NCBI GenBank assembly: GCA_020137815.1
Contig: CM035361.1
Span: forward strand, 3,100,001 to 3,164,000
Length of the DNA: 64,000 nt
Source: Hormiphora californensis
Lineage: Eukaryota; Animalia; Ctenophora
Direction of reading: 5' to 3'
Under the pieces are notes generated by a model. The model was given only the letters and a program-made list of their open reading frames with translations. It made no database searches and was not told where the DNA came from. Position numbers and translations under genes: made by a program. Positions 11,601-57,057 of this stretch are shown one piece after another (positions within the stretch are counted from its first letter, which is position 1; the number at the start of each line of letters is the position of its first letter).

Positions 11601-11940
11601 AACCCAAAAAACCGGGAAAAAAACAAAAAAACCCCCCCGGGAGGGGAAAATAAAAAAAAAAAAAAAAGGGGGGAGAGGGGAAGGGAAAAAAAAGGGGAGA
11701 GGGGGGAAGAAAAGGGGACGAGGAGAGGAGAAGGAGGGAAGGAAAAAGGAGGGGGAGAGAGAAAGAGAGAAAAAGGAGAGAGGGGGGAAAAGGGGAGGGG
11801 GGAGAAGGGGGGAGGGGATTTTGGGGAAAAAAAAAAGGCCCCCAAAGGGGGGGGGGGGGTTTTTTTTTTTTTCCCCCCCCCTTTTTTTCCCCCAATCAGT
11901 AAAAGAAAATAGGAAGGTGGCCCCCAAAAACCCAAAATTC
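8600..11940. other. Low-quality homopolymer-run block, probably a sequencing or assembly artefact
   Basis: Made almost entirely of A/C/G/T runs with no periodicity; it starts inside a transposon copy and fades back to normal sequence. Confidence 0.85.
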
Positions 11941-22040: not shown

Positions 22041-22041
22041 C

Positions 22042-29392: not shown

Positions 29393-29610
29393 TATGTCAG
29401 CTAGTTTTTGCTATTCTGTATTTTATTGATGATAACTCGAGACATATGTTTCTAGTATATAAAGTTTTACCATTAGCCACATGCAGCAGTAATGCTAGTG
29501 TTAATGGTGTGTGATATTTTTCGGTCCTCGTTTTTTATAGTTCTCTCTCACTATCCCCCTCTATCTCACTTGCTATCGTTTCATCTGTCTTACTCTCCCT
29601 GCCTCCCAAT

Positions 29611-29719
29611 CAGGAACCGACCGATACGAGTAAACAACCAATCAGAACTCTTTATTGAGGTCACGTGACTGGTTATCAGCCAATAAGGGACCAGTATTTC
29701 CTGATTCGGTCGGTCTCTG
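29611..29719 (+). mobile_element. hAT-like 109-bp MITE
   Basis: Same family; 8-bp TSD CTCCCAAT. Confidence 0.88.
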
Positions 29720-30062
29720 CTCCCAATAATCTAACTTGTCCTCCCATAAACACCTTTAATATTATCTGCCATGCGCCGGGCAACTCTTTTGATATAAATA
29801 ACATTGACTTTAACATTATTATTTCAAGTTATTCGTTATCTTTCTTCATAGTCTGAGAATATAATGATCAACTCTGTTTTTTTATCCGCATAGTGAGAAA
29901 TTTAGTCGTTTCCTTGATCCCCCAGTTTACTAACTATGTTGAAATTAGAGTCTATAAAAACTATCAGATTATCCTATCCTGATACATTTTCTGCAGACCC
30001 CTCAATATTTCATTTCCCTAATCTAGCGCCCCCTGGATATGATTTGCTGAGTTATACAAGTT

Positions 30063-30125
30063 ATGAGCGCTGAGCATATGATATGTGGCGTCTCAAATGC
30101 GACATTGCAGAAACACTGTTCAGAG
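30063..30125 (+). CDS. Slo distal N-terminal module, exon A1 (MSAEHMICGVSNATLQKHCSE)
   Basis: ATG preceded by an in-frame TGA (30048-30050); strong donor GAG|gtgagt; N-glycosylation sequon NAT and two Cys, as expected for an extracellular BK N-terminus. Confidence 0.72.
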
Positions 30126-30129
30126 GTGA

Positions 30130-30240
30130 GTTGTTTGTTTGTTTGTTTGTTTGTTTCCCTGTTTGTTTCCCTGTTTGTTTCCCTGTTTGTTTCCCTGTTT
30201 GTTTCCCTGTTTGTTTCCCTGTTTGTTTGTTTGTATGTCT
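30130..30240 (+). repeat. (GTTTGTTTCCCT)n repeat filling the A1-A2 intron
   Basis: Tandem 12-bp units. Confidence 0.9.
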
Positions 30241-30265
30241 GTTTATCCATCCCCTCTCTAATCAG

Positions 30266-30373
30266 GACAATAACGGAAGATGGTATTTGTTTCTGGCAAC
30301 GTCTGCAACTATTCTTTTTGGCGGAGGATTAATCATTCACATTTATCAACTTCTCTACGACAGATGGAACAAG
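30266..30373 (+). CDS. Slo distal N-terminal module, exon A2 (S0 helix: DNNGRWYLFLATSATILFGGGLIIHIYQLLYDRWNK)
   Basis: Polypyrimidine tract plus CAG acceptor, AAG|gttggt donor, phase 0-0; aligns with the BK S0 motif [24 protein letters not shown]. Confidence 0.8.
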
Positions 30374-31465
30374 GTTGGTAGAATTATATTTCTTGTATTT
30401 TTGTTTTGCAGTGAAATAAAATACTTTTCAGGACAGCTTGGCATATATCATATAATTCGACATTCAACTCATATATCAACTGGATTAGTATCTATCGCTC
30501 TATTCATTTCCGGCCGTAGTTAGCTAAGACATTAGCCGATCTAGTTCTATATTAGTTACTGTGGTACTATAATAGGGGGAACTCCCTGTTGTAGAAATAT
30601 ATATTATATATGGCCTACTAAAAAGTTTTTCTTCTCCTTCCATCACCATATCATCCTATTCATCTCTGTTTCAAAGCGTCTGTAAGTCTGACTGCCTCTA
30701 AATACACACGTCCATTTCCCTAAATGCGTCCATGATCTGCTGTAATGTTTACACGTTTCATCTCTCTGTCCTGGCCTGTTCCTGTCTGTTTCTGCAGAAT
30801 ACTAGTGAAATAGTTGGACCCCGATTTACCGGGTATAACTGCAGTCGGACCCCGATTTACCGGGATCATGCTCGGGGAAATAGATTTCGCCCGGTAAATA
30901 GTGGTCCGAGATATATTCTGTCCTAGTTAGTAAGTAGTAGTGGTAGTTAGCACATTAGTTATGTAGACAACAAGGACAGCGTGTTGCTCATTCACTTGCT
31001 ACAACAGTGAGTAGAATTGTGGGAGAATTACTGCCATAATAGTTTAGTTACGGTATGTCAAATTGGTCAAATCACTCGACTGTTTACTGTTAGTGTGTAC
31101 CTATTATAATACACACTCGATATTACACTGAGCTGCGGTAGAATGATCACCGTATCATACTTTGCCCAAAACAATAGATCTGCTAACATCGAGTGTAGTA
31201 TAGCCACTCACATGACTCAGTAGATTAATTCAACACCCATCTTCTTGTTCCTTGAACTATCTAACATATATCCCCCTCCAGCCGGCAGCTCCTTGATTAA
31301 ACACCTTATCCAATTATCTGATTGATCCCCCTATATTCTCTCCAATTACTATTATGATTGATCACTCTCCAATTATCTGATTGATCCCTCTCAACACCCC
31401 CTCTCCAATTATCTGATTATCAATGATCCCTCCCCAATTATCTGTTTGATCCCTCTCAATTACAG

Positions 31466-31603
31466 GCCAAGATAGCAGAATGCTTCAACGTCTCGAACCA
31501 CTACGACAGAGATAAGGTAGAGGATGTTGAACTCCACAACAGACTGAGACACTACATAGTCAATGAAGTTATCAGCCTGCAGACCAACAAGGGCATGGTC
31601 ATG
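31466..31603 (+). CDS. Slo distal N-terminal module, exon A3 (S0-S1 linker ending ISLQTNKGMVM)
   Basis: TACAG acceptor, ATG|gtaagt donor, 46 open codons; the end matches BK ISAQTLTGRVL just before S1; phase 0. Confidence 0.8.
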
Positions 31604-32428
31604 GTAAGTAGGGACTTATGGGAATTATTGGTTGGGTGAAAATGGGACAGATGGGGGATTGGGGGAAATTATTCAAAAGTCTGGCCAAAATAAAAGCTCC
31701 GGTTTCTGCGATTAAAGAAAACAACAATTGTGAATCGTATGGCAATAGATCTGAGATATGACCATTGCGCCCAGCAGTATCGAGGCGGTTCGAGGAAAGA
31801 TTGAGCCGTTACATGAACGTAGCGCGCGGGATCACCCACCAGTCGAAAGTTGTTTGATCTGTATCTGCCACTTTTTTGAGCGCGCACTTGGGGCTGGTAA
31901 GGGATGTGCGCGCGGCGTCAATTGCACGTGCATCAGAATGATGGATCGGTAGGATTTTTGGTCAGGGCTCAAGTTTGGCAGGTGTGGCTTGATGACTGTA
32001 CATCGTGCACCCCGCAAGTACTACTCGCAAGTACTCTTCCCTTCGGCCCGGTGCAAAGAGGACGGTCTTATATGAGACAAGCAGCCACAATTAGTGTATC
32101 AACTATGGATTAGGGATTTTCCAGTTGCTATCACACTCTATGGCCGGAAATCAGGGTCGTCAACGGCTATCACTGTTCACTCTCTAATTTTACAATTAGG
32201 CCAAGTACGTGCCGAGAATAAATTAAATCCATGCTAATTCTTATGACCTAAAGACTAAAACAGCGACCTTCCAATTTTACTTTTTAGTGATCTCAGTCCA
32301 TTTCTGTCGTACTGTATTCTAAAATGTATTGCGGCTAATTGGTACGTCGTTAATTTAATGATTCTCATGTCGACATATTGTCTCTCATCTATTATACTTG
32401 TGGATCAAGGGATATGATGGGCATTGCT

Positions 32429-32537
32429 CAAGAACCGACCGAAGCAAGTAAACAACCAACCAGAAATCGTTATTTAGGTAACGTGACTGGTTATCAGCCA
32501 ATCGGGGACCAGTATTTCCTGATTCGGTCGGTTCCTG
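32429..32537 (+). mobile_element. hAT-like 109-bp MITE
   Basis: Same family; 8-bp TSD GCATTGCT. Confidence 0.88.
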
Positions 32538-33264
32538 GCATTGCTCAAGGGGATGTTTGATCCTGGCACCAATTGGAATAAACCCTTGTCTGGTGACAGC
32601 AAGTTGCTTCTCAATTGCCCCGGGCCCCCCACACACCCCAGTTGCTCCTCTCAAGGACTACAAGGATATTTCCATAGTAACCCTCCTGATGATGATGATC
32701 TAAAACTCTTCTTCTTCCCACATGACACTGTGGATCAGTTTCATATTGCTGTGTGGTGTAACCCATCCCACTGTTAAGACCCCTGCCCCCTGCCCCCCGA
32801 TCAGCTGTGAAAGGGGCACTATTGTCAAGACACCACCTGCGTCCAGTGAGCTGCAGTTCTTTCATAAATCTTTTTCGTGGGCGGTCCTGCACCCATCTCT
32901 TAGTTTAGTCTTTTTATGTCCCTGAATATAGCTTCCTCTAGTAGTATTAGATCTCTCTTTCCTCTTTCTGTCTTCTCTCTTTTTCTATCTGTCTTCTCTT
33001 TCTCTCTCTCTCTCTCGCTCTCTCTATCTCTCTCGCCCTGTCTTATCGATTAAGTTGTTGTTGCAGTAATTATATGTGCACCACCGCCGATTAACTGAGT
33101 GGCACGTGACCCTAATATGCAGTCACGTGATCTTTTTGCTGCTTTTGTTGTTGTCCCGTCCAGGTCCTTCTTTGTTGGCCCCCGAGCACGCACTTACAGC
33201 ATGATGATGAAAGAGTTTTCCGGGCCAGTGAGAGGGGAGAGAGAGAGAGTGAGAGAGAGAGATG

Positions 33265-33354
<90 letters not shown>

Positions 33355-34219
33355 TAGAGGATACATTGTTCTTTGTTATGCCCGTGACCCAATTATTTAC
33401 TGCAAAACTAGCTCTTGCATTGTTCGGCTGGCACGAGCCATAAAACTCCTTTATAATGCGGAGGGCGCACTTGATATTATAATGGCCAGGCCGTTATATA
33501 TTTTGTATTGTTTAGCCGACCCTCAACTCTAGTTTGTCATCATAGTCGCTGCTGCATCGTCCGTAATTGTTTGGAGAACAAACGAGTCTGACCAGTTACC
33601 GGCCATGTCGGACTTGCCTAGCTAGAACATAACAATGTCGGACTTGTTTAGCGGTTCTTAGCTAATTGTGGTCTAACTTGTCTCAACTGCAGTGATAGGT
33701 AACAGCTCTTATATAAAGCCTTTTTCCGGCGTCCCCCTTTTCTTTTAGAGGTTTTTTAGAGGTCAAAGCTAACGGAATCAAAGTGAATGACAGCACTTAT
33801 ACACGGTGATTTTATAAACTTATCATACATTTGATTATTGTAGTCTAATTCTATTTGATCTGATCAAATCAGTAAATCACTAAATTTTTTAGTCACGGAC
33901 AAATTTTTGGCCTAAATTTTAATATCTCCTCAAATAGTCGATCTCTCTATGACATGGTTTAGTGTTAATGGCCCCTTTTCATCCTTCCCCGCCTCCTCCT
34001 CCTCCTCCTCGTGAGAGCTGCACTGGAGTGAGTTTGCTTGAGATTCGATGGTTAGGTCTGTAATAATCTGTCTGTGTCAAGATTAGTAGTGACAACTCTC
34101 TCTCTCTCTCGACTTTTCCCTCTCTTTCCCCTAACTCTTCTCGGCTCTGTATGTATTTGGCCGTATACTTCCGTTTAGACTTTCTGCATGGCTGCCCACC
34201 ATCAGCGCGGGTGCCTCCC

Positions 34220-34287
<68 letters not shown>

Positions 34288-34575
34288 AAGAGAGAGTGAG
34301 AGACCAAATTGCATACATAATTCAATATGCCTCCTCTCCTATTTTCTCTTACACTTGTCGCTATACGGGCTAGACAGAATTGAGTCAAAAAGTGAGACAT
34401 ATTTTGATCTCTAATATAGGCTGCGGTTGCTTGTGAGCATTTATGCATCTAGATATTACCTATATTTTGTATAATATATGCCAATTGTTCGACCCTCCCT
34501 CCCCGAAACCCCCAAAAAGGGTTTGAACAAAACAATATAATACATGCATCCTTATTTTTATATACAATATATATA

Positions 34576-34747
34576 CAGTCGGACCCCGATTTAACGGCAC
34601 CCTCGGGGGAAAGGGTTTTGTCCGTTAAATCGGGGTGTCCGCTAAATCGGGGTCAAATACTGTTGATTTTTAATGTCGGGGGAAGATTATCCTGCCGTTA
34701 AATCGGGGTGCCGTTAAATCGGGGGCCGTTAAATCGGGGTCCGACTG
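34576..34747. mobile_element. CAGTCGGACCCC-family MITE
   Basis: Perfect TIRs, TA flanks; ends match 61158-61898. Confidence 0.85.
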
Positions 34748-36744
34748 TAATATATTCTTCATTTTTTCCCTGCCCGGGTGGATGCCCGAAGGGCATCCAC
34801 CCGGATGATCGTTTTAGCACGTGTGCTAAAAAGATCATAAAGGGTTTAGAAATCTCGGATTTGAAATAGTAACTCGAGCGTGGTCAAAATCGCGTGTGTC
34901 ACGGTAGCAGCATAGTAACTGCTCCTTCATAAAATCAAATAACTGTTTTGATGAAATATGATGTCAGGACGCTTATTTTTCAAAGCTGTGCGCGGCGCTC
35001 ACAACACTGTTGCTGAAGGGGTGAGGGTAGAGTAAAACAGCTGTGTAACTGCATATACATACAGGACGCATGCATCTCACATTGTGACCAAGCCTTGATA
35101 TTGTGATACTGATAGTTTGATACTGATCCTGTCGACGGAGGGCAGGGAAACACCGCATTATGAATACATAATGCAATAATTCTTGTTATTAAGTAAGTTT
35201 TGTAAGTAAGTTTTGCCGTGTGTAAGAACTAAGATAGGTGTAATTTATGCCAATTTCAATCTTCCTATTAATTACACTCAATATTTTCTATACACACCAA
35301 AGATCAATTTAGCTCCTCGGTCAGGCAGTATACTATTTTCTGTCTATGTCTCTTTTGATTTCTCCATCTCTCTATCTCTATCTCTATCTCTGTAGAATGG
35401 TCAATATCTAATTTCTATCTTTGGCCAAAAATTAGAATAGATTCCGTGTATGTACGCTGCTCATCTTTACTAACGTTCCAGGGGCTCTTCGACGAAACTT
35501 TAAGCACACTTAAAAACGTTGGCCTCATTCATACATTTTTTTCGGGAATTTTATAAGTCAGTCACAAATGTATTTGTTGAGTAAAAAATCTAATTTTGTA
35601 ATTTTTATATACGGTGATAAGAGGTTCAGTTCGGAATCCTTAGTCCGACAAAGTTGACTGTTCAGTGCCGATGTGCAGTAGGACCGTAAATGTCCATTTT
35701 CTGCGTAACTTTGAGACTGTGTAGTTCATTCAGGCGATAATTTTGGAACTGTAGGATGAACCAAGAACATGTCCAATATAATATGTATTTCGAAAACTTC
35801 CTGTGGGAAAAATTTATTTTGGTGCACAAAACACACTTTCATCCTTAGGCCTTGCTAGACAGTAGACCCTCTCTCAACAGAAGCTGGAGGGTTACAACAT
35901 GAAACAATTATATTATTTGGGCGAAGCAGGGTTCTCTTTGACACTGTGTGTGTGAACAATAATTTAAGGTTCTCTCTATGTGCAGCTCACAATGCATTTT
36001 ATTTCTGTGAGGGTTCGGAGCTGCAGAGCAGCTAGGTTAGCTTTGTACCTCATGGCAGACCGGTAGTGTAGCTAGAAAATCGGATAGACATGGAGACATT
36101 GAGAGAGGGAGAGAGAGGGAGAGGGAGAGAGAATCATTGATGCGCCTAAGGTGGAAAGCAGCCTTTCGAAGGAACATGCACGGAACTGTAGGTTTTAAAT
36201 TTACAATACACACTCTCTTTGGTTTAACGGTGACCCTCTTTGTGACCCTGAGGGCTACAGAACGCATCGACATCGAGGACGCAGAGGCAGCAGCGCTCGA
36301 GATTCCTCTCGCTTCTCTCTGCTCTTTACTCTCTTCTACATTCTCTCTCTTTTCTCCTCATCTCTCTCTCCTCTCTCCTACGCTTTGTCTTTCTCGATTG
36401 CTTATCTACAGTTCACTGATCTCAACTCCACATTTATGTCAGTGGACGTACAGCCAAACACGACCGTATAAAGCAAAAGTCCAAACTTATCTTTTTCCGT
36501 GCTTTCACGTGCTTACCTTAACTTGCTGTCCCTCTTCTTTTCCATACGACTTAAGTTCTACAAGCTAACGCAGTTTCAAGCTATCAGTCATCGAAAAAAG
36601 TAGCGTACCAAGAGTAAAGAGCTCTAAGGTACAGGGTCCTAACTGCTCAGGCCGTTAAGAAGCGCATGCTGATCAAACAAAAGTAAGAGGTAATAGGTAC
36701 AGAAGCTCTGGAAGGTGACAGGGTTAAAAGATCTCCCCAGCTTG

Positions 36745-36844
36745 NNNNNNNNNNNNNNNNNNNNNNNNNNNNNNNNNNNNNNNNNNNNNNNNNNNNNNNN
36801 NNNNNNNNNNNNNNNNNNNNNNNNNNNNNNNNNNNNNNNNNNNN
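36745..36844. other. Assembly gap (100 N)
   Basis: Run of N. Confidence 1.
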
Positions 36845-37423
36845 CCCCCGAACGTTAAATTAATCATGGAGGTATTAGAATATAAAACGATATAAAAATT
36901 CTCGGGCCGTATGAACCATAATTTTTTCATCTTTGACCTTCTTTACCGGGGCGGTAGATCAGACCGATCAGGCGAGCAGGTACACTTTCAAGACTATAAC
37001 CCGAAAATACTACGGGAGATTCATGGTATACGTACATTGCAAATTGTCATCGAACCATCATTATATTTCCCTGTTTCGCAAAATTGATTTTTGGCCTCGG
37101 CCTTTAAACATTGACTTCATACTTATCTTCTACCCTTCTATCTATCTTTATCTATCATCTTTATTTTATCCTATCTATTATCACTATTTCTATCTTTTCG
37201 ATTGGTATCGGTTGTGTGTGATCCTCAATTGGTGTAAGTACGCAATTTTAATGGGCTAATCTACTCTTCTAACATCTTGAATATTACAAATCGCTTCTCT
37301 ATCTTCTTCGATCTCTTACCCCAAATCTCTTTCTTTACCTCTTTTCCTTTATCTTTCTCATCTTCTCTTCTTGCAATATTCTAATCCTCTCTCTCTCTTC
37401 TCTCTTCAAAATAAAAACCCGTT

Positions 37424-37504
<81 letters not shown>

Positions 37505-38901
37505 TGCTGCTCTGTTGCGTCTAGGAGGTGGTGATGTTCTTAAATCGTACTATTTCTGGAGTTACCGTCTGTAGCTGGACATATACGAGCAACTGTTGAA
37601 AAGATTTGTTGTAGATATATCTGTCCTTGATAATTGTCGATTGAATGCATAATATATTTATTAGTTGAGCTGCTGTATAAGTGTTTCGAATAACAATAAA
37701 TTCTTGGAATAATGGTTAAAAATATTCGTGCATTTTTAGAAATGAATTACATAATTTGTTTGGCTAGAAGCTTTTATTTAACTCTATTATTTGATGTTAT
37801 CTTCACCAGTGTCACGGATGTTCAACCTGATAAAAACAAGAACTGATAAAAACAAGAACTGATAAAAACAAGAACTATCCAATAAAACTACATTTTGTTT
37901 TTCATGTTGCATTTAATTATCATTTGGGTAACATGTTTCTTCCTTGTGCGATAAGAAAATTGAAATTTTGTAGGGTGCCCTGTGATTTTAGGCATTCAAT
38001 TGGAAAGTATCCAACCCTTTTCCGGATGTACGGTAATTAGTATTGAAATGCTAGGTCTTCATTATATTAATTACTCCTTTATAAATACAACCTATAGTAC
38101 CTTGTTGCTCCTTCATAAAACCATATATTGAAGACAACAAGCTTGCTTATATGAAGTGTTTTGCTTACATTCGGTCAAGTATCTCGCAATCATACTATGG
38201 CATATATATGTTATGTACATATTTGCATAAAATACAGATATCTAACGGTCAAAGTGTAAACGTATATCATATTGCTTGTGGTACCGCTGCATTTTTTACA
38301 CACACGTGTGCACTTTCACATGATTGACTCGCTGCTAATTTTCGTTTGATTTCACCTATAGATACCGAAACATTATATACCAAATTTGGGCTATTTGCAT
38401 AAGTTCATTCTAATAATACAACTTCTTACATACATTATATTATATTTTTATGCTTGTCTTCATTTTGTCTCAAGTCTGCTATACACATACGATATTTTGT
38501 GTGTGAGACGTTTCGACTACATATTGATTGATTACTTGATAATCGACGTTTGGACATTAATAATGTATGTAATTCAATAGTTGATAATCTACTCAAGATC
38601 ATTTTAGAAATATTTTTGAAACATTCCAATCCTTTGATTCTTTCATTTTGTTGAAAACTCCTAACATCCATGACTTATGTTATGAAGACTATTTATATAA
38701 ACTGCTCTAAATCTCTGCATCAACCGATGCCTGCTTTTATGTTCGTATATATGCGTGTAATGAGGAGTGCGACGAATACTTGGTCTGACAGTTATTATAC
38801 TGACAGGTGTGTTATAGGACCTGTCAAGCTGAGTCAGTGAGTCATGAATATAGAGGATCAGTAACTGGTAGGGATATGGTTGAGCGAGTGAGAGAGGGAG
38901 G

Positions 38902-38933
<32 letters not shown>

Positions 38934-40619
38934 GAGAGTGTGTGTGAGAGAGATACAATAAGAGATATATAATGTGATACACAAAGGAACACAGTGCGGT
39001 AGCTATGCGACCAAGGTGTGAACTGTGAACATGGTATATATCACAATTGCATGTTTAGTCAAATGCTTGAGCTTATGTGTGATGGAAGAACGACAGGTAC
39101 ATAATGGTGATTGGGAGTCGAGCTTCACAGATAAATCAGTCTAGACACACGCACCGGACCGAGTGAGAGGAGTGAGAGAATGAGAGGGGGAGTGAGGGAG
39201 TGAGAGAGTGAGAGAGTGAGTGAGTGAGAGGGGGAGGGAGGGAGTGAGAGAGAGAGAGAGGGTGAGGGAGTAAGAGAGAGAGAGAGTGAGAGAGAGAGGG
39301 GGAGTAATATATCAATCCATGAGTTGTTTTTGCTAATGACGACGCCCCCTTTGTGTGATCGGATGTGTGTTTTTGTTGGCCGTTGGGTGTATTGTCGTAG
39401 TAGATCAGGAGATATAATGGAGATAGAGTGAGAGAGAGAGAGAGATAGAGAGAGAGAGATAGAGAGAGAGAGAAAGAGAGAGAGAGATGGAGAGATATGA
39501 AGATTGATGACTCCCATACATTAGCTTAATTAAAACTGTAGACCAAATTCGATTTCAAGCCTTCCTCTATTCTTCATTCTATAGAGATATGTATTCCTTT
39601 TGAGATATATCTAGTATGTTTTGTTGTCTAGCTTCAACTGCAGTTGCATGTATATCATCTAAAGCAGCAATTTATGCTAAATCGGCTTCCGTCTAGCTGT
39701 ATTCTAGCGCTACTAGAAAGCAGCTATAGCGTTATCGGCTCTTCATGTCGAGGTTATAAAACATGGCAATATGTATGTCTCGAAGCTAAACAGCTATACC
39801 GGGAAATTGGACTAGTGTTTTCAAGATGAAACATCTCATTCTCCACTTTCTCCCTCCCTTTGTTGCCTTTTCTCATCATGAGTACTCAAGTTGCATTTTT
39901 ATCGTTTCCATAGAAACTAAACGGTTTTCAAGTTGAGGTACATTAAAACCTACTAACGTTGACAGAGAGAAGGAAAGAGAGAGAGAAGGAGTGAGAGAGA
40001 GAGAGAGAGAGAGAAGGAGTGAGAGAAAGAGAGCGACAGAGAGAGAGAGATAGAGATAGAGAGAGAGAGAAATGAGTTGTTTAACAAATCCTGCGCGAGA
40101 CAGCAATATGAAATATATCCATCGCTCAACATACATAAAATGATTATTATCTTGTTGAGCTCTGATAGATCGATCAGATGGATCTATTGACCCAACCCAC
40201 TTTAGTATATTTAGTGTATTGAGAGATTGTTACTTTAACTAGGGGAGAGGAAGAGAGATTGTTACTGCTCTAGCTTTGACCCAACCCGCTTTATATATTT
40301 ATTTAGTGCAGTGCATTGTGTGCTTGTTTTTTCCAACAACTTCCCTCTCCGGATTTGAGACATTCTACTTTCACGCTACTATGTATAGCCCCCCCCCTCC
40401 GCCTTTATATCCGGCTGCAGTACAGCGACCACTAGTCCGAGTCGGCAAGTCGCTGTATAACAGCTCTTTATCAGACAAGCTATTTGTAGAGACAATGCTA
40501 TGCTAAGCAGCCCTCCTTTTATGTGAACCGTCTGTCACTAATACCGTTACTTGTTATCTTGCAATATTATATAATCTTCATCCCTATATCTATCTACGGA
40601 TCTCAGCTAGTCTGCCATA

Positions 40620-40800
40620 CTTCCTTCTCCCTCTTCCGTCTCCCCGTGCACTAGTTGTTCCTCCTCCCTCTTCCTTCTCTCCGTGCACTAGTTGTTCCTT
40701 CTCCCTCTTCCTTCTCTCCGTGCACTAGTTGTTCCTTCTCCCTCTTCCTTCACTCCGTGCACTAGTTGTTCCTTCTCCCTCTTCCTTCTCTGATCCGTGC
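40620..40800 (+). repeat. Minisatellite of about 34 bp (TTCCTTCTCCCTCTTCCTTCTCTCCGTGCACTAGTTG)
   Basis: About five tandem units. Confidence 0.85.
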
Positions 40801-41356
40801 ATTAGCGGATGTCCAGACTTATTGGTGATTATCGGATGATTATTAGGGAGGTAGATTTGCATTTGACACACTCTGTGACTACTACTTACTACCGCGGCAC
40901 ATTCGAGGCAGAGATCTCACTGATCATCACCATCCTACGTGTCACATATTATACTGTCATGATGAACCAGCAGCATGTGTTTATATCATGCATCTCATTG
41001 ACAGCAAGATGACATGAGAGATTGTCCGTATTATATGCCCCCATTATAAATGTTCGAATTGTCTATGGAATCGGTTCAGTCTCACTCTAGCGATGTAGAA
41101 ATATATATCTGTTAAAAATCTATAATAATCGCTTGCACGCTATAAACTGGATGATCAATTGTTCCAGATTGCCCTAAATTTTAAATATATTACTCTCTTC
41201 TTATTCATTGTCCTCTATCATAATACGTGCCCTCTTTTTGCAGCTCCCATAGTTACACGTCGGTGTGAGCTGTGCAGAAACTATAGGGGCCCCACGGAGT
41301 TATAAAGTTACATCATTACTTCCGCTGCCCAGCATGAAACCTTATCTATCTATCTT

Positions 41357-41449
<93 letters not shown>

Positions 41450-42043
41450 CCCCTCTCTCTCTCCCTCCCTCTCTCTCCCTCTACGGTTGACTAGTCATTG
41501 TTTCCTTACGCTTTGCAGTTTTGCACAATGCGTAGAAGAACTTTTGTGTCACTCCTTCCGGTACCACATTGTCTTTGTACCCTTGTAGCATGCCTATTAT
41601 ACTAGCTATTATATATTTCACGGGGGTCGAAACTGGCCTACCCTTGTATTATTATACTAGTGCAGGTTTTACTAGTTCCATTCCTGAAATAGGTTCCTAA
41701 TTTTTTGTTTTTTTTTGTTGTTGCATTTTCCCATCCTGAAATAGTGCAGGTTCCTGATTTCTCCTTTTTTGTTGTTGCAAAAGTCCCATTTTGTTTTAAA
41801 TTCAAGCTTTACCGATACTACCACAACACACATAGGTCCGGTAAACAGATCTCAACAAGCTGATGTGAAAGAGTTGAAAGGTTAAAGAAGCTCAGAGCTG
41901 TTGATACATAAACTGAAACCCGTGGAGCTACTACTATATCAGATCGAGAGAGAGAATATATATATATATCCGATCAATAACTGAGATCAAGCTGCACGAG
42001 AATGATCGAACCAGGTTGAACAGGTGCTAGCTCAGTGAGAGAT

Positions 42044-42135
42044 ATGTCAAGTAACAACGGGAGTACTGCACTATGCTACGCTACAATAAAACAGTACAAC
42101 ACCCCAGAGATGTGTGGAGGTCGCTATTGGGGCTG
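42044..42135 (+). CDS. Slo proximal N-terminal exon B1 ([30 protein letters not shown])
   Basis: ATG, NGS sequon, two Cys; the phase-2 TG|gtaagt donor joins the next exon to complete a Trp codon. Confidence 0.8.
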
Positions 42136-45100
42136 GTAAGTCAAGATCATCACTGGGAACCGACCGAAACAAGTATACAACCAATCAGAACTCGTCATTT
42201 AGGTCACGTGATTGGTTATCAGCCAATCAAGGACCAGTATTTCCTGATTCGGTCGGTTCCTGATCATCACTCGTCACGCCCTTCATTAATGAGATGTCTC
42301 AACTTTTGGGTGTCTCAAGACCCCGCATTATCTTATCGTAGTGATCAAAATGTCCCGACAATCATCTTCTTTTAAGCCTCATCCTACTGCAGGGGATGGC
42401 CAATTCGACCACCCTTTCTAATGGAAATGTATTAGGACATGTGATCCCTCAGTGCAGTAGGATGAGTGTTAACCATCCTAAAATTACTGCACGTTGCTAG
42501 AGTTCATGATTTTAAATTACCAGGTTCCTGCTGAGTGGTGTGGTGAGTTACATGGTCGGCCTCACCATCCTCCTCACATGCCGTACCTTCTACGCCTTCT
42601 GGGTTCGCAAGGTTTATGAGCGGAGACCACAAAGTAACTACGCCAATGAGCTGTATGATTCACCCTTTCTAACACCGGAGCGAGTTGATAAGTTTCAGCA
42701 TCGGGTCTTTGATCACTTTCTCTCGGTCCAAACTGCCTCTGGGAAATGTACTGTAAGTGACGATAGTGAATACAGGGTGACGCCTGTTTTATTGCGCGTA
42801 CCACGCTAATGCCCCTACTTGAACTTTCGGTCTGCATTGTATCCTTTGCGGCGCGTGTTAAGCAAAATTTTAACGAACTTTCTGGGGTTGTGGGTTGGGG
42901 GAAATCGTTTTTATGGATTTTTAGGGTTAAATGACTATGTATTTCATTTCAGGCGATCCTCTACTTTTTGTTCAATGTAATATCCGTCACCCTTTACATT
43001 CGCCAATCGGACCAGTGAGTAGAAAGCAAAAGAAAAACATCAATATATCTTGGTTTATCATTGTGCATCATGGTTTATTGTCAATAAATTATTGACACAA
43101 CTTTCTTCTTGAACTTTGTTAATCTTGAAGCACTTGAAAGTTAATTATTTTTTAGGCCGCTGGAGCAGTGTGAACAGGTGTTGGATTACTGTAACTGGGC
43201 TCTTTACGCTGATATTGGTTTAAATATTTTCTTTTTATTTCACTTCATTCTAAGGGTAAGTGGTGTATTTCTAAAATGTTAATTAGCTGATCAACAATTA
43301 ATTAATCAATTATTACTCGACTCTAGATTCTAAATATCATCTATTTTTCAGTTGATAGCGGCCCCAAATAGGTTAAAGTTTTGGTTTCAATTGGGTTCAA
43401 TCGTTGATTTCTGCACCATTCCCCCATGTGGTCTGGCACTCGTTCTCAAGCGAAACTGGCTTGGTAGGTGAAATCACATGTTCTTTCAGGATAATCATAA
43501 ACCAGCCATTTTTCATTATACATTGTTAATCTTGTTCATGTCTTTAACTAACTCTGTTCATGTTGGTAATGTTTTTAACTCTGTTCATATTTTTCATATT
43601 TTTAACTCTGTTCATGTTAACATATTGTTCATGTTAACACCTGCATTTCCCAGGTATGCGGTTCATGAGGGCCCTTCGATTCATGCAGATGGGTGAAATC
43701 CTCATGACATTTAATAGTACTGGAACGTAAGTATATCTCACCCCATCATATCACATACCCCCCTTTTATTAATTGGCCTCTGATCCCTTTATTTTACTTA
43801 CAAAACATTGATAACTCTCCCTATACATTTAGACACATATGTTTTCCCTCCTAATTGTGTTCCCCTATATAATGCATCATAACCATGCACAAAACTAAAT
43901 ATATAAAAACCTTCTCTCGTGGAATGTATTGATTAAACATATTGTGTGTTATCCATGTAAATTCTTAGTGTACAAACACATAGTAATATAACATTGAATA
44001 TATGCTTGTATCCGTTATAAAAAAGCCTCCCGTGCATTCCAAAAAAACACTAAACTTTAATCGTATCTTTATGTGTTCGTTAGCTAATATGTCCGTTACC
44101 CGTGTGTATTCGATCAATCGTTGTGTGATTTGTGTGTCAAAGCATTGACATTTATACCAAGAGCTGTGTGTTTAGTAAAACTGGAAAGTTATTTTCGTGT
44201 AATTTTCTAATCATTTGATTTCGTTGTTTTTGAAACTCAACCCCTTCGGTCGTATCGTTCTTTGCTTTGTTGTAAATTTAGTTTTTTGTTGTACTTTTCT
44301 CTACAAAACTCCAACTTTTGTTGTCAATTTCAATATCTGCCCCCCCTTGATTTGTAACCATATATGGTCATATCACGTGGTATATTTGTATTGATGAAGG
44401 AGCAATGTCGTCATGGCGTACTTGATGTCCCCACTCTCCATCTCTCCTCTCTCTCTGAATGACCGTTGTCGACATATAACATCCAAAGCACAGCTCCTTC
44501 GGCGGTAGCAGTGGAGGAGGAGGAGGTGGTGGGGGTGGAGGGGGTGGAGGAAGCCCTAAACGGAGGACGTGGAACAAACCGTTCAGCGGGGCCGGCCAGA
44601 GTGGTCCTGGAGGTGGAGGTGATGGTGGTGGTCCTGGAGAGATGGGCAGGGGACACAGCAGAAGGTGCCCGCAGCTCTGCAGCCGAGTGTGAAATGAAAA
44701 TTTTCTTTCTCGCTCCCTCTCTTTGTATTTTGGAAGAAGAGGGAGACGGGTGAAAAATGTCTTTTTCGCATGTTTGTATATCGTTTGGTTTGTGTGTGTA
44801 CCTTTTCGGGATTTTGCTTGCATGAGAGTGTGTGTTGAATTTGTCTCATTTGTCTAGTAACCATAGGGACTGAAATCTATTAACAACCCCTTATATGGGC
44901 ATGACTTTCTTAACACGAAGAAGGAACGTTTGATGTTTTTCGTTGCATGCCTATAATATCGTACTTTATCTCTAAAGGCACAAGGGTTAACTAATTGTGG
45001 TTGTTACAATTCATGTGTTTTTGAAATGTCACCTGTCGATATTTAAAACACTTGTGATTTGTCTTCTGTCAATTGATGTATGTACAATTAGTTGATTAAT

Positions 45101-48100
45101 TGATTAATTAATTAATTGATAATTGATTAATTAATCAATTAATTAATTGATTAATTAATGAAAGATATGTGAAAACTCTCGTTTTTAAAACCTCGCTATC
45201 TATCTCTCTAGAATTCCATCCTTTACAAAGCAATGCGTCTTTCCTCTTTTTCCGCGTGAATTCTCACTTCCACCCCCTTGTTACACGCAGCTCGCCGGAT
45301 GTGAAAGCGCCCAGTAAACCCTCCAAATCAACGCTATTCAAGAAGAAAGTGAAGAGCCAGCTGGACGATAACGGTGTAGTTAACGAGAAACACGAGTGGG
45401 ATAAAACGGTGATCTCCCGTGGTAATAATGTTGGAGCTGGTAGTGATAAGAAAATCAAGACGAAGATGGCCCAAAAAGCGGAGAGTTTTCGGAAGAGTTC
45501 CGGGTCTGGAGATGCGGTTGCTAAGCGACCAGCTTATGGGCAACAGGAGGATGCAGGGTACATGATGCCGCTGTGAAGACTGACCACCACCATGATACTA
45601 TCCACCATGGAGAGAGCTTATCAGCTGACATACATTAATTGCAGGAGAAGTCGCTCTAAAGCAGATACAAATATTCCTCCTTCAACAGCGGAAAGAGCAC
45701 ATACCAGCAGCAGTTTCTGAAATATATGAGCACGTGATGCCCAAATATGGTCAACACGTGATATGATGACGCTTCAGAGCATTTCATTTGGGAACGCCAC
45801 GAGGGGAAGCAGAACCTATACAGCAACATGATACCCAAAAGCCCTCCAATTGCAGCAGGCGGGACTCATGCATGAATCTCTCACTATTTAAACTCCAGCC
45901 AAAGCAAAGAGCAGTTAAAAAAATCAACAAAATTCTGTGGGTGAAAATACAAAACTAAAGTAAAATGCATGCTCTCTCTCTCTACTAAATTAACATAGCA
46001 CCCTTCTATACTCCAGCTCCGATATAGTACTGTGTCCATACTATAATAGCTATGCTATACCTTAAATAATACTATATCCCTAGTTGTCCCCTCCCGCCCC
46101 CCTCCACTTCTAGACGAAACGATAGAAATCCCTTCGAAATCTAAACAAGAATCCCCGATTATATAATCCACCTATTATAGCCACTAAACCATCCCTCATT
46201 ACCCCCCTCTCGTTATCTATACATCTTATTGCAATATGTTGCTTTGTTATTATCAGGGAGGAAGACCAGCGGGCGGAGAAACGGAAGTATGTGCATGTTG
46301 AAACCCACCGCGTATATTAAATATTAGTTTTATATACTCTTATTCTATTACTCTGGTGATAGTTGGTCGAAATAGCTTCTGGTTTAAATTTAACGGGAGT
46401 ATTATATCTCACGCGATATATTTGTCACGCGTGAGATATAAAATATCACGCGTGAGATATAAAATATCACGCGTGAGTGAATATTACACACCAATTCCAA
46501 ATGAGATATATATTCGTTATCTTTTAACCAGGCTATTTTGATCATCTCTCTTATCTAGCATGTGCAGCAGAAAACCTCTAATCGTGAATTCGTCCCCTTG
46601 CTATGCTTTTTTTGTTATTCAATATACCAGACCCATTAATTTTTGGTAGCATCTTACAATGTGCTACCCTTTGTGCTTTCTACTTCTATGCTACTCTTCT
46701 CTTTCTATTTATCACTGCTAGGCACCCTTCGAACAATTGTTCCCAAGGGTGTCTAGGTGACACAAAACAATAAATTCTTTTCCATATTTGAAACTTTTTT
46801 ATAACTCAGTTTTTTTTTCCGCTACTATCATTCTACTTGAAATGAAATGATTTTGATTGCCTTGCTCCCATTTTTTAATCCCTTCATGTCAACTGTATGC
46901 TAGTGTGATGTGTCACCATGTAACAAGTACTGCAACTGAGAGAGAGAGAGAGAGGGTGCAGTTCACTAAAATGAAATCATTTCCGCTTCCAGAACAAGCC
47001 CCTCTCTCTCTCTTTCTAATCAATAGTTGTAATAGCCAGATCGAGCTTCATGTACAGTTATCAGTTACTGATGTACTGTACATGATCTCAGCGAGATCTA
47101 CAATAACAATATTCAGTGTGTTCGAAATGTGATGTGTCTGTGATATATATAATCTTGCCAGAGCTAAAGCATGTGAAGCCCGCTGAGTACATCTCTCTTA
47201 CCTGCACCCCGCTATATCTTCTCTTATACCACACATTGACATTAAACACATTGACACATAACATTTAAACACGACAGTGCAACTTGAACAACCGACCTGG
47301 ACACTTACATGACAATTGAACAGTCGGGCCCCCATTTACCGGGGTCCGACTGTACAATACTACTGCTGACATTACTCTTCTTTCGACTGACATAGTGATC
47401 ACAGACACCACAAGGCAACAGACACGACAAGACAGAACGGGAAACCGCTCACTAAATCCGTTAACCGGAGGACCTATATCCAATTCAGGTCCATTGTGCA
47501 ACTTCTCGTTATCATGCTAGAATTCGTGTCCATCTGGTTATCTGCCTCTGGGTTTATTCACCTGGTAAGTTGATATGTAATCTCCAGCAGGAACCGACCG
47601 AATCAGGAAATACTGGTCCCTGATTGGCCGATAACCAGTCACGTGACCTAAATAACGAGTTCTGATTGGTTGTTTACTTGTTTCGGTCGGTTCCTGCCAT
47701 GAAGATATTAGATATTGAGGGGTTATAACTAAACCTAGGTCCTTCTGTGGCATGCCCAAAAGCTGACGTGATTTTCTGCTTAAAAGACGCCCTATACGGC
47801 CATTATAATAGAGATATATCTAGGGTCAAGCAGTTTTTAGGGAATGTGAGAGTTGATCGTGTACATATTTCCCAGCTCTAAGTATACAACCCTTTGGTGA
47901 CATAGATACCTGGCGTGTGTGAGCTCAATCTCGGTCGCGCCAGGTGTCTATGTCACCAATACAACCCTCTCTCTCCCACACAATTCAGGTTGAAAACTCG
48001 GGTGATCCCTGGGAGAACTACAGCAATGCCCGAACGAGTCCGTTTAGTTATTTCGACTCTGTCTGGCTCACCATGGTAACCATGTCAACTGTGGGTTATG

Positions 48101-51100
48101 GAGACACATATCCTACCACGGGTACGTACAGCAACATGTAATGGGTTATGTAGAGATATATTACAGTCGGACCCCGATTTAGTGGCATCCTCGGGGGATG
48201 TTAATTTCTTATATCGGGGGAAAAAATCCTGCCACTAAATCGGGGGGCCACTAAATCGGGTCCGACTGTACTTAATAATAATAGATCCAACATTATACGA
48301 GCTGATTCCACTTAATATCTAACTGATACTTTAATATATTTAATGGATATTTAATGGATCCCGTTCTCCTGATTTTGTAGCTAATTTATGAACAATGATA
48401 TTGGGATATTATATTTCTTTTTTTTCAGGTATTGGCAGATCTTTCATGATGATCTACATTGTGTGTGGTCTTGCTATGTTCGCCACCTACACTCCTTACC
48501 TATATGAGTTTTATAGGAGCCGATCTCCCTACGCGGGCCGATATGAGCGGGCTGATAGCAAAAAGTAGGTTCTGCCAAATAATGGCCTGTTTAGTTCGAT
48601 ATTATATATCCGGCTGATATACAGCGGGCCGATAGCAAAAAGTAGGTTCTGCCAAATAATGGCCTGTTTAGTTCGATATATCCGGCTGATATATATATTA
48701 GGGGAACGGATGGTTTTTTAACGCAATGATCACATAGATTCAGTTATTTCAATCGATGGCACTAATTATCCAATTAATGGCACTAATTATAATCCCCTCT
48801 CTCTTCAGATACGTTGTGGTATGTGGACACATCACGTACAACAATGTGAAATCCTTTTTAGCTGACTTCCTACACCCTGACAGGGGGGACAGGACAAGTC
48901 GGGTACTCTTTTTAGACAAGTAAGCAATCCTTTAGATTTGATAGGGGGGGGACAGGACAAGTCGTGTACTCTTTTTAGACAATTAAGTAATAGTGATCTT
49001 TGGCTTTATTCAGTACAACGATCTTTCTAAATTGGCTTGTTGTTTATCTGTCAGGCCAATGCTCTGACTTCTGTTCTCGCGAGCTCCGCCAATGCTCTGA
49101 CAAATTACTTATTGTCGTCATTTTCATCCAGTAACCAAATGTTTCCTAGTAAGCGGCCAGAGCCGGAATTGACGGGGTTGATAAAGCGTTATTTTTTAAG
49201 TGTGCAATATTTTGAGGGCTCTGCTCTCAATCACAATGATCTCAGACGTGTTCAGGTAGGGGAGCCACAGGTAATATGGGATACCTAACAACTTTTCGTC
49301 ATATTTTTTTTTCAGATGGCAAAAAATTCACGCCGTCTTCATAGGTCTGTCTTATTTGGACCAAGGTAACACATTACCACCAAAACTAACCCAACGAATG
49401 CTCCATAACGGAGATCTGGCACTATCCCATATTACCTTGAAAATTTGCAGTGGAATTTTATTTTGGTGATATGGGATACCCATTTTTTACGAAAACGGGA
49501 TATCCCATATTATCAAAATAATAGATATCCCATTTTACCAAACCTTTAATTTTGCCATCCGATGGAAGCTAAAATACACATCATATGAGTTAAACTGGTT
49601 TTAAAACGTATTTAAAGTGATTAGTAAATGGGATTGAATTTTTCAAGGCGGTTGTCTTCAAATTCCAGGGTTGAAGCCAGTCTCCTGCTCTTCGGCCGGT
49701 CCGACTCAACAGTAGGTTTCTGTTGGAATACCAAAACTATATCCTCGGGTTTCACCGCACTAATATCGTCTCTTTCCGGATATTGAAACCGGATCTTGGT
49801 AGTTGAAGGTATCTTGCTGGGCACACGGCGTAGAAATCGAATTTCATAATCGTTGTCCACCTTGTCACCGGTAACATAGCCAGCATAGAACTGCACTGTT
49901 CCACGGTAACTGAACCTTACGAGTACAAATGTCCCAGGTACAATATCCTCCTGTTCAATTTCATGTGGAGTCTGGTCCTCTTGCTGATTAGTGGAAGAGG
50001 CCGGTGCTACTGGAACAGGAGAAGCAGTAGATGGGAACAGTTCTTTCTTCACCTTAGTAGGAATTGTCTTTCGTTTCTTGCTGATCTTCTTCACGGCACC
50101 AATCCTAATCACCCCATCTTTATCTGCCACAGTTGCACCACACTTTCTCTTCAATGACTTGTTCTCCCTTCTGATCTCCTTTAGCTGCTCCTTCAAAAGC
50201 TTGTTCTCCTCCTGGAGAGCTATCTCCTTCACGTATGGGCTGGAGGTGATCAGGGCTGTTTTCCCCTGCCGCTTGGAGTTGGTATTTTTCTTCAATGCGT
50301 ACTCAATCTTGGGAAGAGGTATAACATGTTCAGGCAGAGTCATGGTTGAAATGTCGGAATCAGTTGACGAAATAGAGCTGTTGGAGTGGTCTGGGAGAGG
50401 CTGGTGGCCGCACGTGGCACACGCAGGGCGTGTGATGGTCGCTTGATCAGGTTGATCACCACTTGCTTGGTCTTCACCATTATCTCCGTCATCATTTACT
50501 ACTGCACCTAGCTGCTGATGTGCGGTAACAAAGGCTCCGTCAAAGATAGAAGCATCAACTGGCCAGATTCCACACTTCTTAAAGCCTGACTCGAGGCTAT
50601 CAGAGTGTACCACCTTGGTGAATGCTTTCTCGAATAGTTCTGCGATGAAGTTGAGGGTAAGAGGTCTACCGGGGTTATTTCTGAGCCACTCTTGCACCTC
50701 CTTACTGTAATAAATCTCAAGTGGCCCCATGGCGGTAACATCCAGGGGTTGCATACGATGGGTACAATGAGGAGGAAGGCAAATCATCTCCAGGCCATTA
50801 TCACGGGCTAAGTAGAGAACATCGAGAGATTTTACATGGCTCACATGTCCATCCAAGATCAAGAGAGCTGGCCGTTCTTTACTGCAACCTATGTGGTCGA
50901 TGAAATGTTGCAACCACACCAAGAAGCTCTCGCTAGTCATCCACCCCGATGGCTGGTTGGCGGAGATGCTTCCAACTGGCGCACCACGAAGGTAATCTGG
51001 ATTATTCTTCTTCCTAGGAAAAACAAACATGGGAGGCACCCACTCCCCAACCGCATTGCCACAGAGAAGAACAGTAACATTTGTCCCTCGCTCAGCAGAG

Positions 51101-54100
51101 CTCATTGCCCCGATCTGTTTCTTTCCGGATCTCCCGAGTATCTTAGGGGGCGCATTCGGGACAGTACTCACTCCTTTTTCGTCACAATTAAAGATTCGGT
51201 GAGGAGGGTATGGATGTTTCTCCATCACCTTTGTGTAGAGATTGAAGAAAGATTCAACATTTCCCTTGTTAAAAGAGCGGGATCGGGCAAGGGAGGTATT
51301 CTCTGGCTTTCTCAGAGATATTTCAGGGTAACGTGCTAGAAACCGATATAGCCAGTGATAGCCCGCCTTCTCACCTTTAAAAGGGCTTCTCAGACCGTTT
51401 CTTGCTGCAAGTTGGAAAGCCATTTTGCGTACATCCGTGCATGTTAGCCCGAACAATGCCTCCTCCATTGATAGGATATGGTCTCTGAGCATGTCTTCGA
51501 GGTGGAGAGGTAGGACCGTGGATCCAACACCAAGCTTCTTATAGCATTCAGTTGCCACCTTGTTTCCGCCCTTCACCCTTCTCTCTAATGTTGATTTGGG
51601 CACTGAGAAGAACGAAGATGCTTTGAGATAGCCCATGGTCTTGTTCCGCACTGCTTCGATTGCCTTCTTCATATTGTCAGCATCCCAGAATTGCCTGGTG
51701 GTCTTGCGAGTGTAGATATAGCTAGATCCAGATGGTTTCTTAGATCTTGTTGGTGCCATGATAGAGCTACGCTATGAAAAGAGAGAAATGTGAATGATTT
51801 TGGAAAAATGGGATAGTGAAAATTTGGTAAATTGGGATATCCCATTTCAGTAAAATAAAAGTATCCCATTATACCAAAATGGTATAATTATACAATTAGC
51901 TAATTAGCAATCAGATAAGGTTGTTCTGATCATTAAGACTTTCTATATTTGCTTAAAAATATCTAGCCTATTGACATGGATGATCAGTGGTCTCCCGAGA
52001 CAACAGAGACGCGTGTTTGGAAAGAAAGAAGTGGACTGAACTTTCCCTTTCCATTATTTTATAAGAAGGGTGTGGTAGTGTACCATTTTAACATAACAGA
52101 TAACGGCAGTTATCGGTCTAGGAATCACTTTAAGATAATAAAATATGTTCCCCATCTGTTAGTGAGGTTATAGTGTGGCTTATCTTTTCAATACACCGAT
52201 TTCCCATTTTCCCAAATTTCCCATATTACCTGTGGCTCCCCTAATTAATTAACGTGTAACTAACTTGTTAATTAACTTGTTAATTCACAGTTAGGGTCGG
52301 ATTTTTTAATCTCCGTTATTAGATGAATTTTATACATTACAATTTACCTGTTTGAGCTTGTTATAGCTCTAAACACACTTCCCTCCACACGATAGTTAAA
52401 ACACGCGGATGCAGTGATACTGCTATGCAACAAAGATTCAGATGATACAAAATCAGAGGATGCTGCGACCATCCTTCGGGCGGTGAGTGCTGCTGCAGGG
52501 GGGGTGTTGATTGCAGGGGGAGGGAGGGAGCGGTGAGTGCTGCTGCAGGGGGGGGGGGGAGGTGTTGATTGCTGCAGCAGGGGGAGGGAGGGGGCGGTGA
52601 GTGCTGCAGGGGAGTTCTGAAGAGTGGGGGTGGTGAGTGCAGCAGGGCCAGGGGAAGGGAGTGGTGAGTACAGAGGGAAGGAGGGAGAGAGGGGGTGGTG
52701 AGTGCAGAGGGAGGGAGGGAGAGAGGGGGTGGTGAGTGCAGAGGGAGGGAGGGAGAGAGGGGTGGTGAGTGCAGAGGGAGGGAGGGAGAGAGGGGGTGGT
52801 GAGTGCAGGGGAAGGGAGTGGTGGTTCGAAGAGGGGGTCTGGAGATGTGAGTGATGGTGGGGGTTCGGGGTGTTTGGAGTTGTGACTGTGTGGAGTCGAT
52901 CAGTCGAGTCACTGGTCCCTCTCTGAACCTATTATTTTAGTTGTTAATAATATTAACTCATTCCCCCTCCCAGATTTCCGTCAAGAATTACGACAGGGAG
53001 GCCCGGTTGATAATGCAACTACTAAACTATAAATCCAAGTCCTTTCTACAGACAATACCCAACTGGGACCCAATCAACTTTCGTGATGAGAATATTTGCA
53101 TCAGTGAGGTTAGTTATTATCAGGAACCGACCGAATCAGGAAATAGTGGTCCCTGATTGGCTGATAACCAGTCACGTGACCTAAATAACGAGTTCTGATT
53201 GGTTGTTTACTTGTTTCGGTTGGTTCCTGGTTATTATAGGGGGATGTTAGACCAGTCAGACGGACCCCGATTTACCGGGTAAAACCCTTCCCCGAAGAAT
53301 CCCGGAAAATCGGGGTCCGACTTTAGCTACAAATACAATACAAACTGTATGACTAATTTTGAATTTTATCACACGTCACACTGGTATTCAACATCAACAT
53401 CATTATTTCAGTTCATGTATGGGTTGGTGGCCCAGAGTTGTTTGTGTCCCGGATTCTCCACCCTCATGATCAATCTGATCTCAACCCGGTCCTATATACC
53501 TGGGACAGGGGAGGAAACAGACTGGAAGAGTGACTACGCTTATGGGTGTGATCATGAAATCTACACTGTCATGATTTCTAGTGACTTCACTGATATGACA
53601 TTCCCTGAAGCTGCTGAGTAAGTCGTTATTATTTGTGCTTTCCAATTCCAACCCTCTCAGCTTAGACTTTTGGGCAGATAATCTACTTTAACTGAACCAC
53701 ACCAAATATTATCAGCTTCTATATACCCCCCTCCAGACCGCACCCAGGATATGTTTTATTAACACCCCCACATGATCTGTTTTATTTACACCCCCCCCCC
53801 CACTCCCACCGAATCTGTTTTATTTACCCCCCCCCCCCCCCCCCCCCCCCCGAGCGTCGTCCAGTTCCACCGAATCTGTTTTATTTACTCCCCCCACTCC
53901 CACCGAATCTGTTTTATTTACCCCCACTCTCAGGATATGTTACACCCAACTGAACCTGCTTCTGATCGCGGTGGAGAACTTCGATAACTCTGGGTTAGCT
54001 ATAAACCCGCTTCCCGACCAATTCACAATACGAAGGGAGTGTCTAGGTTACTTCATTGCCTCGTCCTACAAAGATGTTTGCAAGTGAGTGGAGTTTTCTT

Positions 54101-57006: not shown

Positions 57007-57057
<51 letters not shown>

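Follow-up and report, generated by a model that had tools for sequence, protein, structure and literature searches.

A 64,000-nucleotide stretch of the genome of the ctenophore Hormiphora californensis (contig CM035361.1 of assembly GCA_020137815.1, positions 3,100,001 to 3,164,000 of the forward strand; hereafter the window, numbered from its first letter) contains, on its plus strand, a gene that on its sequence is the ctenophore Slo1 (BK) potassium channel and that possesses two divergent front ends, modules A and B, upstream of a single body running from membrane segment S1 to the C-terminus. Module A is made up of the first coding exon A1 (30063..30125), which encodes the extracellular N-terminus and a cysteine pair, A2 (30266..30373), which encodes the additional N-terminal membrane helix S0, and A3 (31466..31603), which encodes the S0-S1 linker and a pre-S1 helix. 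Module B comprises B1 (41910..42135), which an RNA contig defines as a 5′ untranslated region, at least from 41910, followed by the first coding exon with its ATG at 42044, and B2 (42524..42752), which encodes S0, linker and pre-S1 helix together. The shared S1-S4 exons follow at 42953-43014, 43156-43255, 43352-43463 and 43654-43726, with RNA contigs splicing between them, and the shared exons for S5, pore and S6, for the RCK1 domain, for the RCK2 domain with its Ca bowl and for the C-terminus occupy 47489..62671, the 3′ end being approximate.

Translation of module A (30063-30125, 30266-30373, 31466-31603) yields 103 residues and that of the coding part of module B (42044-42135, 42524-42752) 107 residues; both are stop-free, are bounded by AG and GT sites and end in a phase-0 donor before the S1 exon start at 42953, and the frames from A to S1 and from B to S1 are both open through S4. 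The exon positions, lengths, phases and S1 start proposed in an initial annotation of this DNA are thus all borne out, as is the low identity of the two modules, which amounts to 24% in the window, with a local alignment score equalled in 3 of 1000 shuffles (0 of 1000 for each A-B pair from lobate ctenophores). Open translation, a stop in frame upstream and a cysteine spacing equal to that of Mnemiopsis A define A1. Against the lobate isoforms of its own type A2 shows 62% and B2 67% identity, and A3 is 86% identical over 36 residues to isoforms in which it joins S1; at its end it lines up with the pre-S1 motif that is invariant among Slo channels. A module profile run against 3193 six-frame pieces detected no third module in the window, and module or cassette exons submitted singly had no informative match in Pfam, a hit to UL41A at 18 bits against a cut-off of 30 being taken as chance.

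Several features support the prediction of an S0 helix in both modules. The hydropathy of their S0 segments peaks at 1.9-2.4, both types align to the S0 of Aplysia, and AlphaFold models of the Mnemiopsis isoforms assign residues 29-64 (A) and 26-60 (B) to an S0 helix, with a predicted local distance difference test score of about 90, and residues 69-92 (A) and 78-93 (B) to a pre-S1 helix, the extracellular ends being of low confidence. The N-glycosylation sequon and cysteine pair to which the initial annotation drew attention are present in the window; however, neither the A N-terminus of Bolinopsis nor the B N-terminus of Mnemiopsis has the sequon, and a cysteine directly before S0 occurs, by eye, in all 25 aligned Slo N-termini, so that on the alignment this residue is a feature of the Slo family and not specific to a module. 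By analogy with the Cys14-Cys141 bond of mouse, it is likely to pair with the S1-S2 loop.

RNA was taken from four runs of one seawater study (window word shares 0.15, 0.11, 0.10 and 0.06; a fifth run, X5, with 0.00 was left out), which gave contigs near-identical to the window at a depth of 2-7, with two stretches examined apart. The splice from A2 to A3 was recovered in one of the four runs and that from B1 to B2 in two, in the latter case on a contig that spans 41910-42134 before continuing into B2, and run X1 contains both; each module is therefore transcribed and spliced in Hormiphora californensis, albeit at low depth and in a single study. A1 had no contig cover, which in data this thin is not proof of absence. 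The first ten residues of A3 (31466-31495) differ from those of lobates in the manner of a short compensated frameshift, and the RNA agrees with the window; an assembly frameshift at the start of A3, suspected from this mismatch, is ruled out by the contig, which covers 31464-31565 without indels. In the A isoforms of lobates, a microexon that encodes 12 residues in Mnemiopsis and 7 in Bolinopsis can be included between A2 and A3; no counterpart of it was found in window positions 30374-31465, where the RNA contig joins A2 straight to A3. Further downstream, contigs show the splices among S1-S4, a direct join of S4 to S5 (43726 to 47489, one contig) and later splices. One contig seems to start exactly at 42953 (92 + 62 = 154 letters), a weak sign of a fork there, given that unspliced DNA or RNA forks as well.

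The identity of the shared body is supported by multiple lines of evidence. From S1 to RCK1 the window encodes 495 residues free of stops, with GT-AG introns throughout and 91-92% identity to Mnemiopsis leidyi and Bolinopsis microptera; in the orthologues, the Pfam families Ion_trans, Slo-like_RCK, BK_channel_a and Slowpoke_C all score above cut-off. The best solved-structure matches of both isoform types are Slo1 channels, for example Aplysia 5TJ6 and human 6V22 (E about 1e-212 and 1e-216), and so are the best Foldseek matches, whose root-mean-square deviation of about 22 A supports family identity only. The order of S1-S6 with a K+ filter followed by an RCK1/RCK2 gating ring is that of Slo1, the extra helix S0 is present in both module types, the S4 arginines are conserved, and the Ca-bowl motif, aligned to the Aplysia bowl, spans the exon ending at 59362 and the one starting at 59779. 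The interdomain Mg2+ site, which is common in studied Slo1 channels and not family-defining, is substituted: its ligand positions aD86, aN161, aE363 and aE388 (PMC5677106; PMC numbers here and below refer to the available parts of the papers) align by eye to H, P, R and Q. A module-specific difference at this site was ruled out, as the acidic residue occurs in neither module and the site is substituted with either. Ca-sensitive outward currents recorded from Mnemiopsis muscle are unassigned to one gene (PMC13749725). Two more segments, 57755-57847 and 61947-62671, match variable parts of the lobate isoforms and appear to be optional or alternative exons of the RCK1-RCK2 linker and of the C-terminus.

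The evidence that both modules feed the same channel comes chiefly from two lobate genomes. A search with A3 alone retrieved 10 proteins (8 full-length isoforms) and one with B2 alone 12 proteins (11 full-length), and both sets point to one Mnemiopsis gene, ACHWQZ_G000808, and one Bolinopsis isoform series. Among 24 proteins of ACHWQZ_G000808 that were compared, 10 are A-type, 12 are B-type and two lack S1, and 15 Bolinopsis microptera isoforms divide into 12 A-type and three B-type; none of these 39 carries both modules. In each of 10 chosen lobate A/B pairs the two proteins agree at every one of the first 115 positions counted from S1, and in six pairs the agreement continues to the C-terminus. 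Moreover, contig L001 from a relative (4341 nucleotides, an intronless open reading frame) runs from B straight into S1 and includes a 10-residue linker exon. Thus, database isoforms of two species, together with the B-S1 join of L001, place two 5′ modules on one constant exon, and the either-or isoforms, L001 and the open frames uphold the variable-plus-constant design that had been suggested from the window alone.

The modules are also old. Identity across species is 59-80% for A-A, 58-98% for B-B and 22-29% for A-B comparisons, with the window A and B each sharing 58-60% of residues with the module of the same type in Mnemiopsis leidyi and Bolinopsis microptera, and in a module tree of the three species the A group is supported at 99/99 and the B group at 99/96 (121 columns, long branches). 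Since A and B group by type across species, the duplication is older than the split of Hormiphora californensis from the lobates, in agreement with the old duplication postulated initially. The differing intron positions that had been offered as a sign of this age are real in the window and weak for dating, because a genomic A2 piece, P0182, apparently has its intron elsewhere, judged from protein alone; P0103, P0174 and P0182 are further A-type pieces. In a small sample of seven small outgroup Slo1 clusters no alternative S0 was found, two isoforms there simply lacking S0.

Taken together, these observations make it very probable that the two modules serve as alternative starts of a single channel, and we consider it likely that the two divergent front ends are spliced alternatively onto one S1-to-C-terminus body, most plausibly from separate promoters. 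Several points weigh on the other side. The lobate isoforms are available as database models only, and the four RNA runs, sharing one study of seawater, may include DNA. The initial annotation had proposed junction reads 31603 to 42953 versus 42752 to 42953 as a check, and neither join is among those listed from the four runs, where missing cover at depth 2-7 is no evidence of absence. A metagenome scan for an annotation-independent transcript joining A to S1 returned a single locus, of B type, and a search for short proteins gave five matches, all of them genomic exon pieces, with no such transcript. Among 19 outgroup Slo N-termini, a sister-group relationship of A and B was neither shown nor rejected (p-AU 0.37). 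With respect to function, deletion of the extracellular N-terminus of mouse Slo1 left the gating of the alpha subunit alone unchanged, and the native Cys14-Cys141 bond had no effect on measured properties (PMC2391248); differences between A and B channels may therefore be small.

How the start is chosen is bound up with spliced-leader trans-splicing. The B1-B2 contig of run X1 has 24 loose 5′ letters before 41910 that are, by eye, the reverse complement of leader positions 7-30 as printed in PMC8527503, and window positions 41910-41914 extend this complement by five bases; this loose end, seen on one contig, is likely to be self-primed fold-back cDNA from a leader-capped B mRNA. The leader is reported on 56% of Hormiphora Iso-Seq reads (PMC8527503). 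If B mRNA is leader-capped, rapid amplification of cDNA ends or cap analysis of gene expression, the 5′-end checks suggested in the initial annotation, would likely return the leader and not the B promoter, and alternative trans-splicing of one long pre-mRNA becomes a rival to a second promoter, the contigs themselves being unable to show transcription starts. Under this rival, a single promoter upstream of A would serve both products, and trans-splicing of the leader onto an acceptor upstream of 41910 would cut out the B mRNA, leaving the A exons as outron. The leader-complementary end fits this scheme, and the leader is common in this animal; yet only a single B contig bears the end and could be a chimera of two molecules, a leader would be equally expected from a B promoter of its own with a short outron, and L001 has a leader-free 5′ end of 95 nucleotides. 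We regard the single-promoter scheme as unlikely, and the choice of A or B by separate promoters as reasonably probable.

A second source of diversity lies between S4 and S5, where three exons, all symmetric and in frame, could lengthen the S4-S5 linker. A Gly-rich cassette of 57 codons (44494..44664, plus strand, acceptor uncertain, GT donor) has a core 64% identical to a lobate cassette of 43 residues (E 4e-16). A Lys-rich cassette of 89 codons (45291..45557, plus strand, GT donor) equals the Mnemiopsis cassette in length and matches it weakly, its alignment score being equalled in 3 of 1000 shuffles. A microexon of 10 codons (46257..46286, plus strand) is identical to the lobate isoforms at all 10 residues and is included in L001. 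The Gly-rich and Lys-rich cassettes are based on annotation and conservation only, and the joins of all three lack cover in the thin contigs of the four runs. Lobate isoforms carry either no insert or one insert (10, 43 or 89 residues) at this site, under A and B starts alike. In other Slo proteins the linker is nearly invariant: the spacing from S4 to the post-S5 region is 45 residues in 36 of the 38 measurable other matches (of 145), with one of 44 and one truncated model, and it is 44, 54, 87 or 133 in the ctenophore isoforms, so that the cassette-free ctenophore linker is one residue below the usual value. These insertions into a near-invariant linker are possibly a bigger surprise than the exchange of S0.

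The region downstream of S4 had previously been viewed as a switch that, combined with the modules, would give a 2 × 2 set of channel and sensor products. The latter is poorly supported, and on sequence grounds the "post-S4 switch" is better read as the three in-frame cassettes. It seems quite doubtful that a protein limited to the sensor, S0-S4, is a deliberate additional product, although such a product would be compatible with alternative starts of one channel. Read-through of the S4 donor or of any cassette donor does meet a stop within 1-11 codons, spliced S3-S4 contigs in two of the four runs extend 22 and 38 nucleotides into the following intron, two contigs cover 45855-46095, and one poly(A)-type hexamer is found at 43932. 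However, each of the three exons has an in-frame donor and an equivalent inside the linker of lobate isoforms, neither the Gly-rich nor the long cassette is followed by a hexamer of this type, and intron read-in is expected of ribosomal RNA-depleted RNA or of DNA; a weaker point is that no sensor-only protein was present among five matches from 279 candidates of 30-612 residues.

The possibility that module A is instead part of a separate Slo paralog, or was misjoined, with its S1-S6 exons hidden inside the assembly gap at 36745..36844 (100 N, true size unknown), appears very improbable. The gap could be of any size, the assembly has unpolished stretches (about 8600-11900), and no read joining A3 to S1 was seen. 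Nevertheless, in the 3193 six-frame pieces a constant-channel profile picked out no credible exon of the S1-to-C-terminus body within 31604-42043 outside the gap (best matches, E 1.4 and 8.5), in accord with the initial observation that S1-S6 exons are lacking between A3 and B1; the gap flanks are devoid of channel exons, and a search of representative sequences returned a single full-length ctenophore match of high identity. Two other ctenophore genomes have A- and B-type starts in one gene with the same downstream protein, which makes a hidden paralog or a misjoin unlikely. That A and B stand in one chain with two S0 helices, or that A yields only a small one-pass protein, is hardly credible: two of the 35 AG sites in 41700-42130 leave a path A3-B1-B2-S4 open and read-through of A3 meets a stop after 11 codons, but both open sites fall within the coding part of B1, the A3-B2 frame has a stop at codon 135, none of the 39 lobate isoforms combines the modules, and A3 ends in the pre-S1 motif.

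We therefore return to alternative starts of a single channel and propose the following scenario. A tandem duplication of the ancestral N-terminal exons would have occurred before the split from lobates, with both copies presumably kept under selection. A transcript begun upstream of A1 would splice 31603 to 42953 across an 11.3-kb intron containing B, and one begun upstream of B1 would carry the leader and reach S1 across an intron of 200 nucleotides. Zero or one of the three cassettes would then set the S4-S5 linker independently of the module, giving up to 2 × 4 full-length channels. Given that S0 is packed on S3-S4, and that the loop between S0 and S1 is turned towards the gating ring, channels with A and channels with B would be expected to diverge in their voltage range, their kinetics or their trafficking, with pore and Ca bowl unchanged. 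In mammalian Slo1, S0 adjoins S3-S4 (PMC2391248) and matters for the effects of beta subunits (PMC3328208), and the S0-S1 loop and the short S4-S5 linker contact the RCK1 N-lobe (PMC5677106); the auxiliary-subunit argument of the initial annotation likewise derives from mammalian beta subunits, not from ctenophores. The choice of module and cassette could thus tune voltage coupling, kinetics or trafficking. More tentatively, it is possible that cell types pick one of the two ancient S0 modules, perhaps through leader trans-splicing, and one of four S4-S5 linkers (0, 10, about 50 or 89 extra residues), rebuilding both sides of the BK voltage sensor; the long linkers might loosen or re-route sensor-to-pore coupling, and exon choice might provide the gating range that beta and gamma subunits provide in vertebrates.

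About 3.3 kb of homopolymer-run sequence at about 8600-11900 resembles unpolished long-read output rather than real DNA. The intron after exon 49150-49255 contains an insertion of about 3 kb (about 49260-52240) that by eye is DNA-transposon-like: its two ends match, similar ones occur at about 7310-8600, and its minus strand has a long reading frame (about 49610-51760). At about 20510-23410, long inverted arms surround what looks by eye like degenerate transposase-like sequence. An interspersed repeat of roughly 110 bp, abundant in the RNA runs, occurs in many introns (29610-29720, 42150-42260, 47590-47700, 53130-53230, 60540-60630 and others), and a second, short palindromic family recurs, for example at 34575-34750 and 61160-61900. 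On the minus strand at about 3950-4440, short segments resemble, by eye, exons of an unrelated gene that is oriented away from the channel gene.

Two features distinguish the BK voltage sensor, S0 and the short S4-S5 linker, and what is known about their roles comes mostly from engineered mutants. The gene described here provides natural, long-conserved swaps of these features in channels whose pore and gating ring are the same, and the isoform sequences are public and can be directly expressed and compared. The gene is also relevant to how excitability is diversified in ctenophores, which probably are sister to the other animals, from apparently one Slo1 gene. The isoforms are already in NCBI annotations, unremarked. 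The locus tag ACHWQZ_G000808 occurs in no paper of the literature searched, nor in the available part of PMC11797021, and no description of ctenophore Slo1 isoforms was found in that literature (titles and listings, most subscription papers, such as the Fodor and Aldrich 2009 survey of BK splicing, being outside our reach) or in the available part of bioRxiv 10.1101/2025.02.15.638427.

Several known systems share parts of this design. In the clustered protocadherins and in UGT1A, duplicated variable exons are joined to constant exons, as here, and in the mutually exclusive exons of Cav and Nav channels membrane segments are likewise exchanged by exon choice; the present case differs from all of these in that two multi-exon modules form the 5′ end of a K+ channel gene in an animal with leader trans-splicing. 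The alternative promoters of Drosophila slo alter the untranslated region or the extreme N-terminus and have one S0 in common, unlike the ctenophore gene. Like other Slo1/KCNMA1 channels, the latter encodes S0-S6, two RCK domains and a Ca bowl; the known splicing of Slo1 affects mostly the C-terminal domain (PMC8567177), in contrast to the N-terminal swap described here. The closest precedents are Drosophila slowpoke, with its tissue-specific promoters C0, C1 and C2 (PMC2020501), and, also within the Slo family, Slack-A and Slack-B of KCNT1 (Slo2.2), in which alternative N-termini are placed on a constant channel by independent promoters, with consequences for kinetics and assembly (PMC3850776). 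Slack-A and Slack-B differ in their cytoplasmic N-terminus only, whereas the swap predicted here replaces the extracellular N-terminus, a membrane helix and an intracellular linker.

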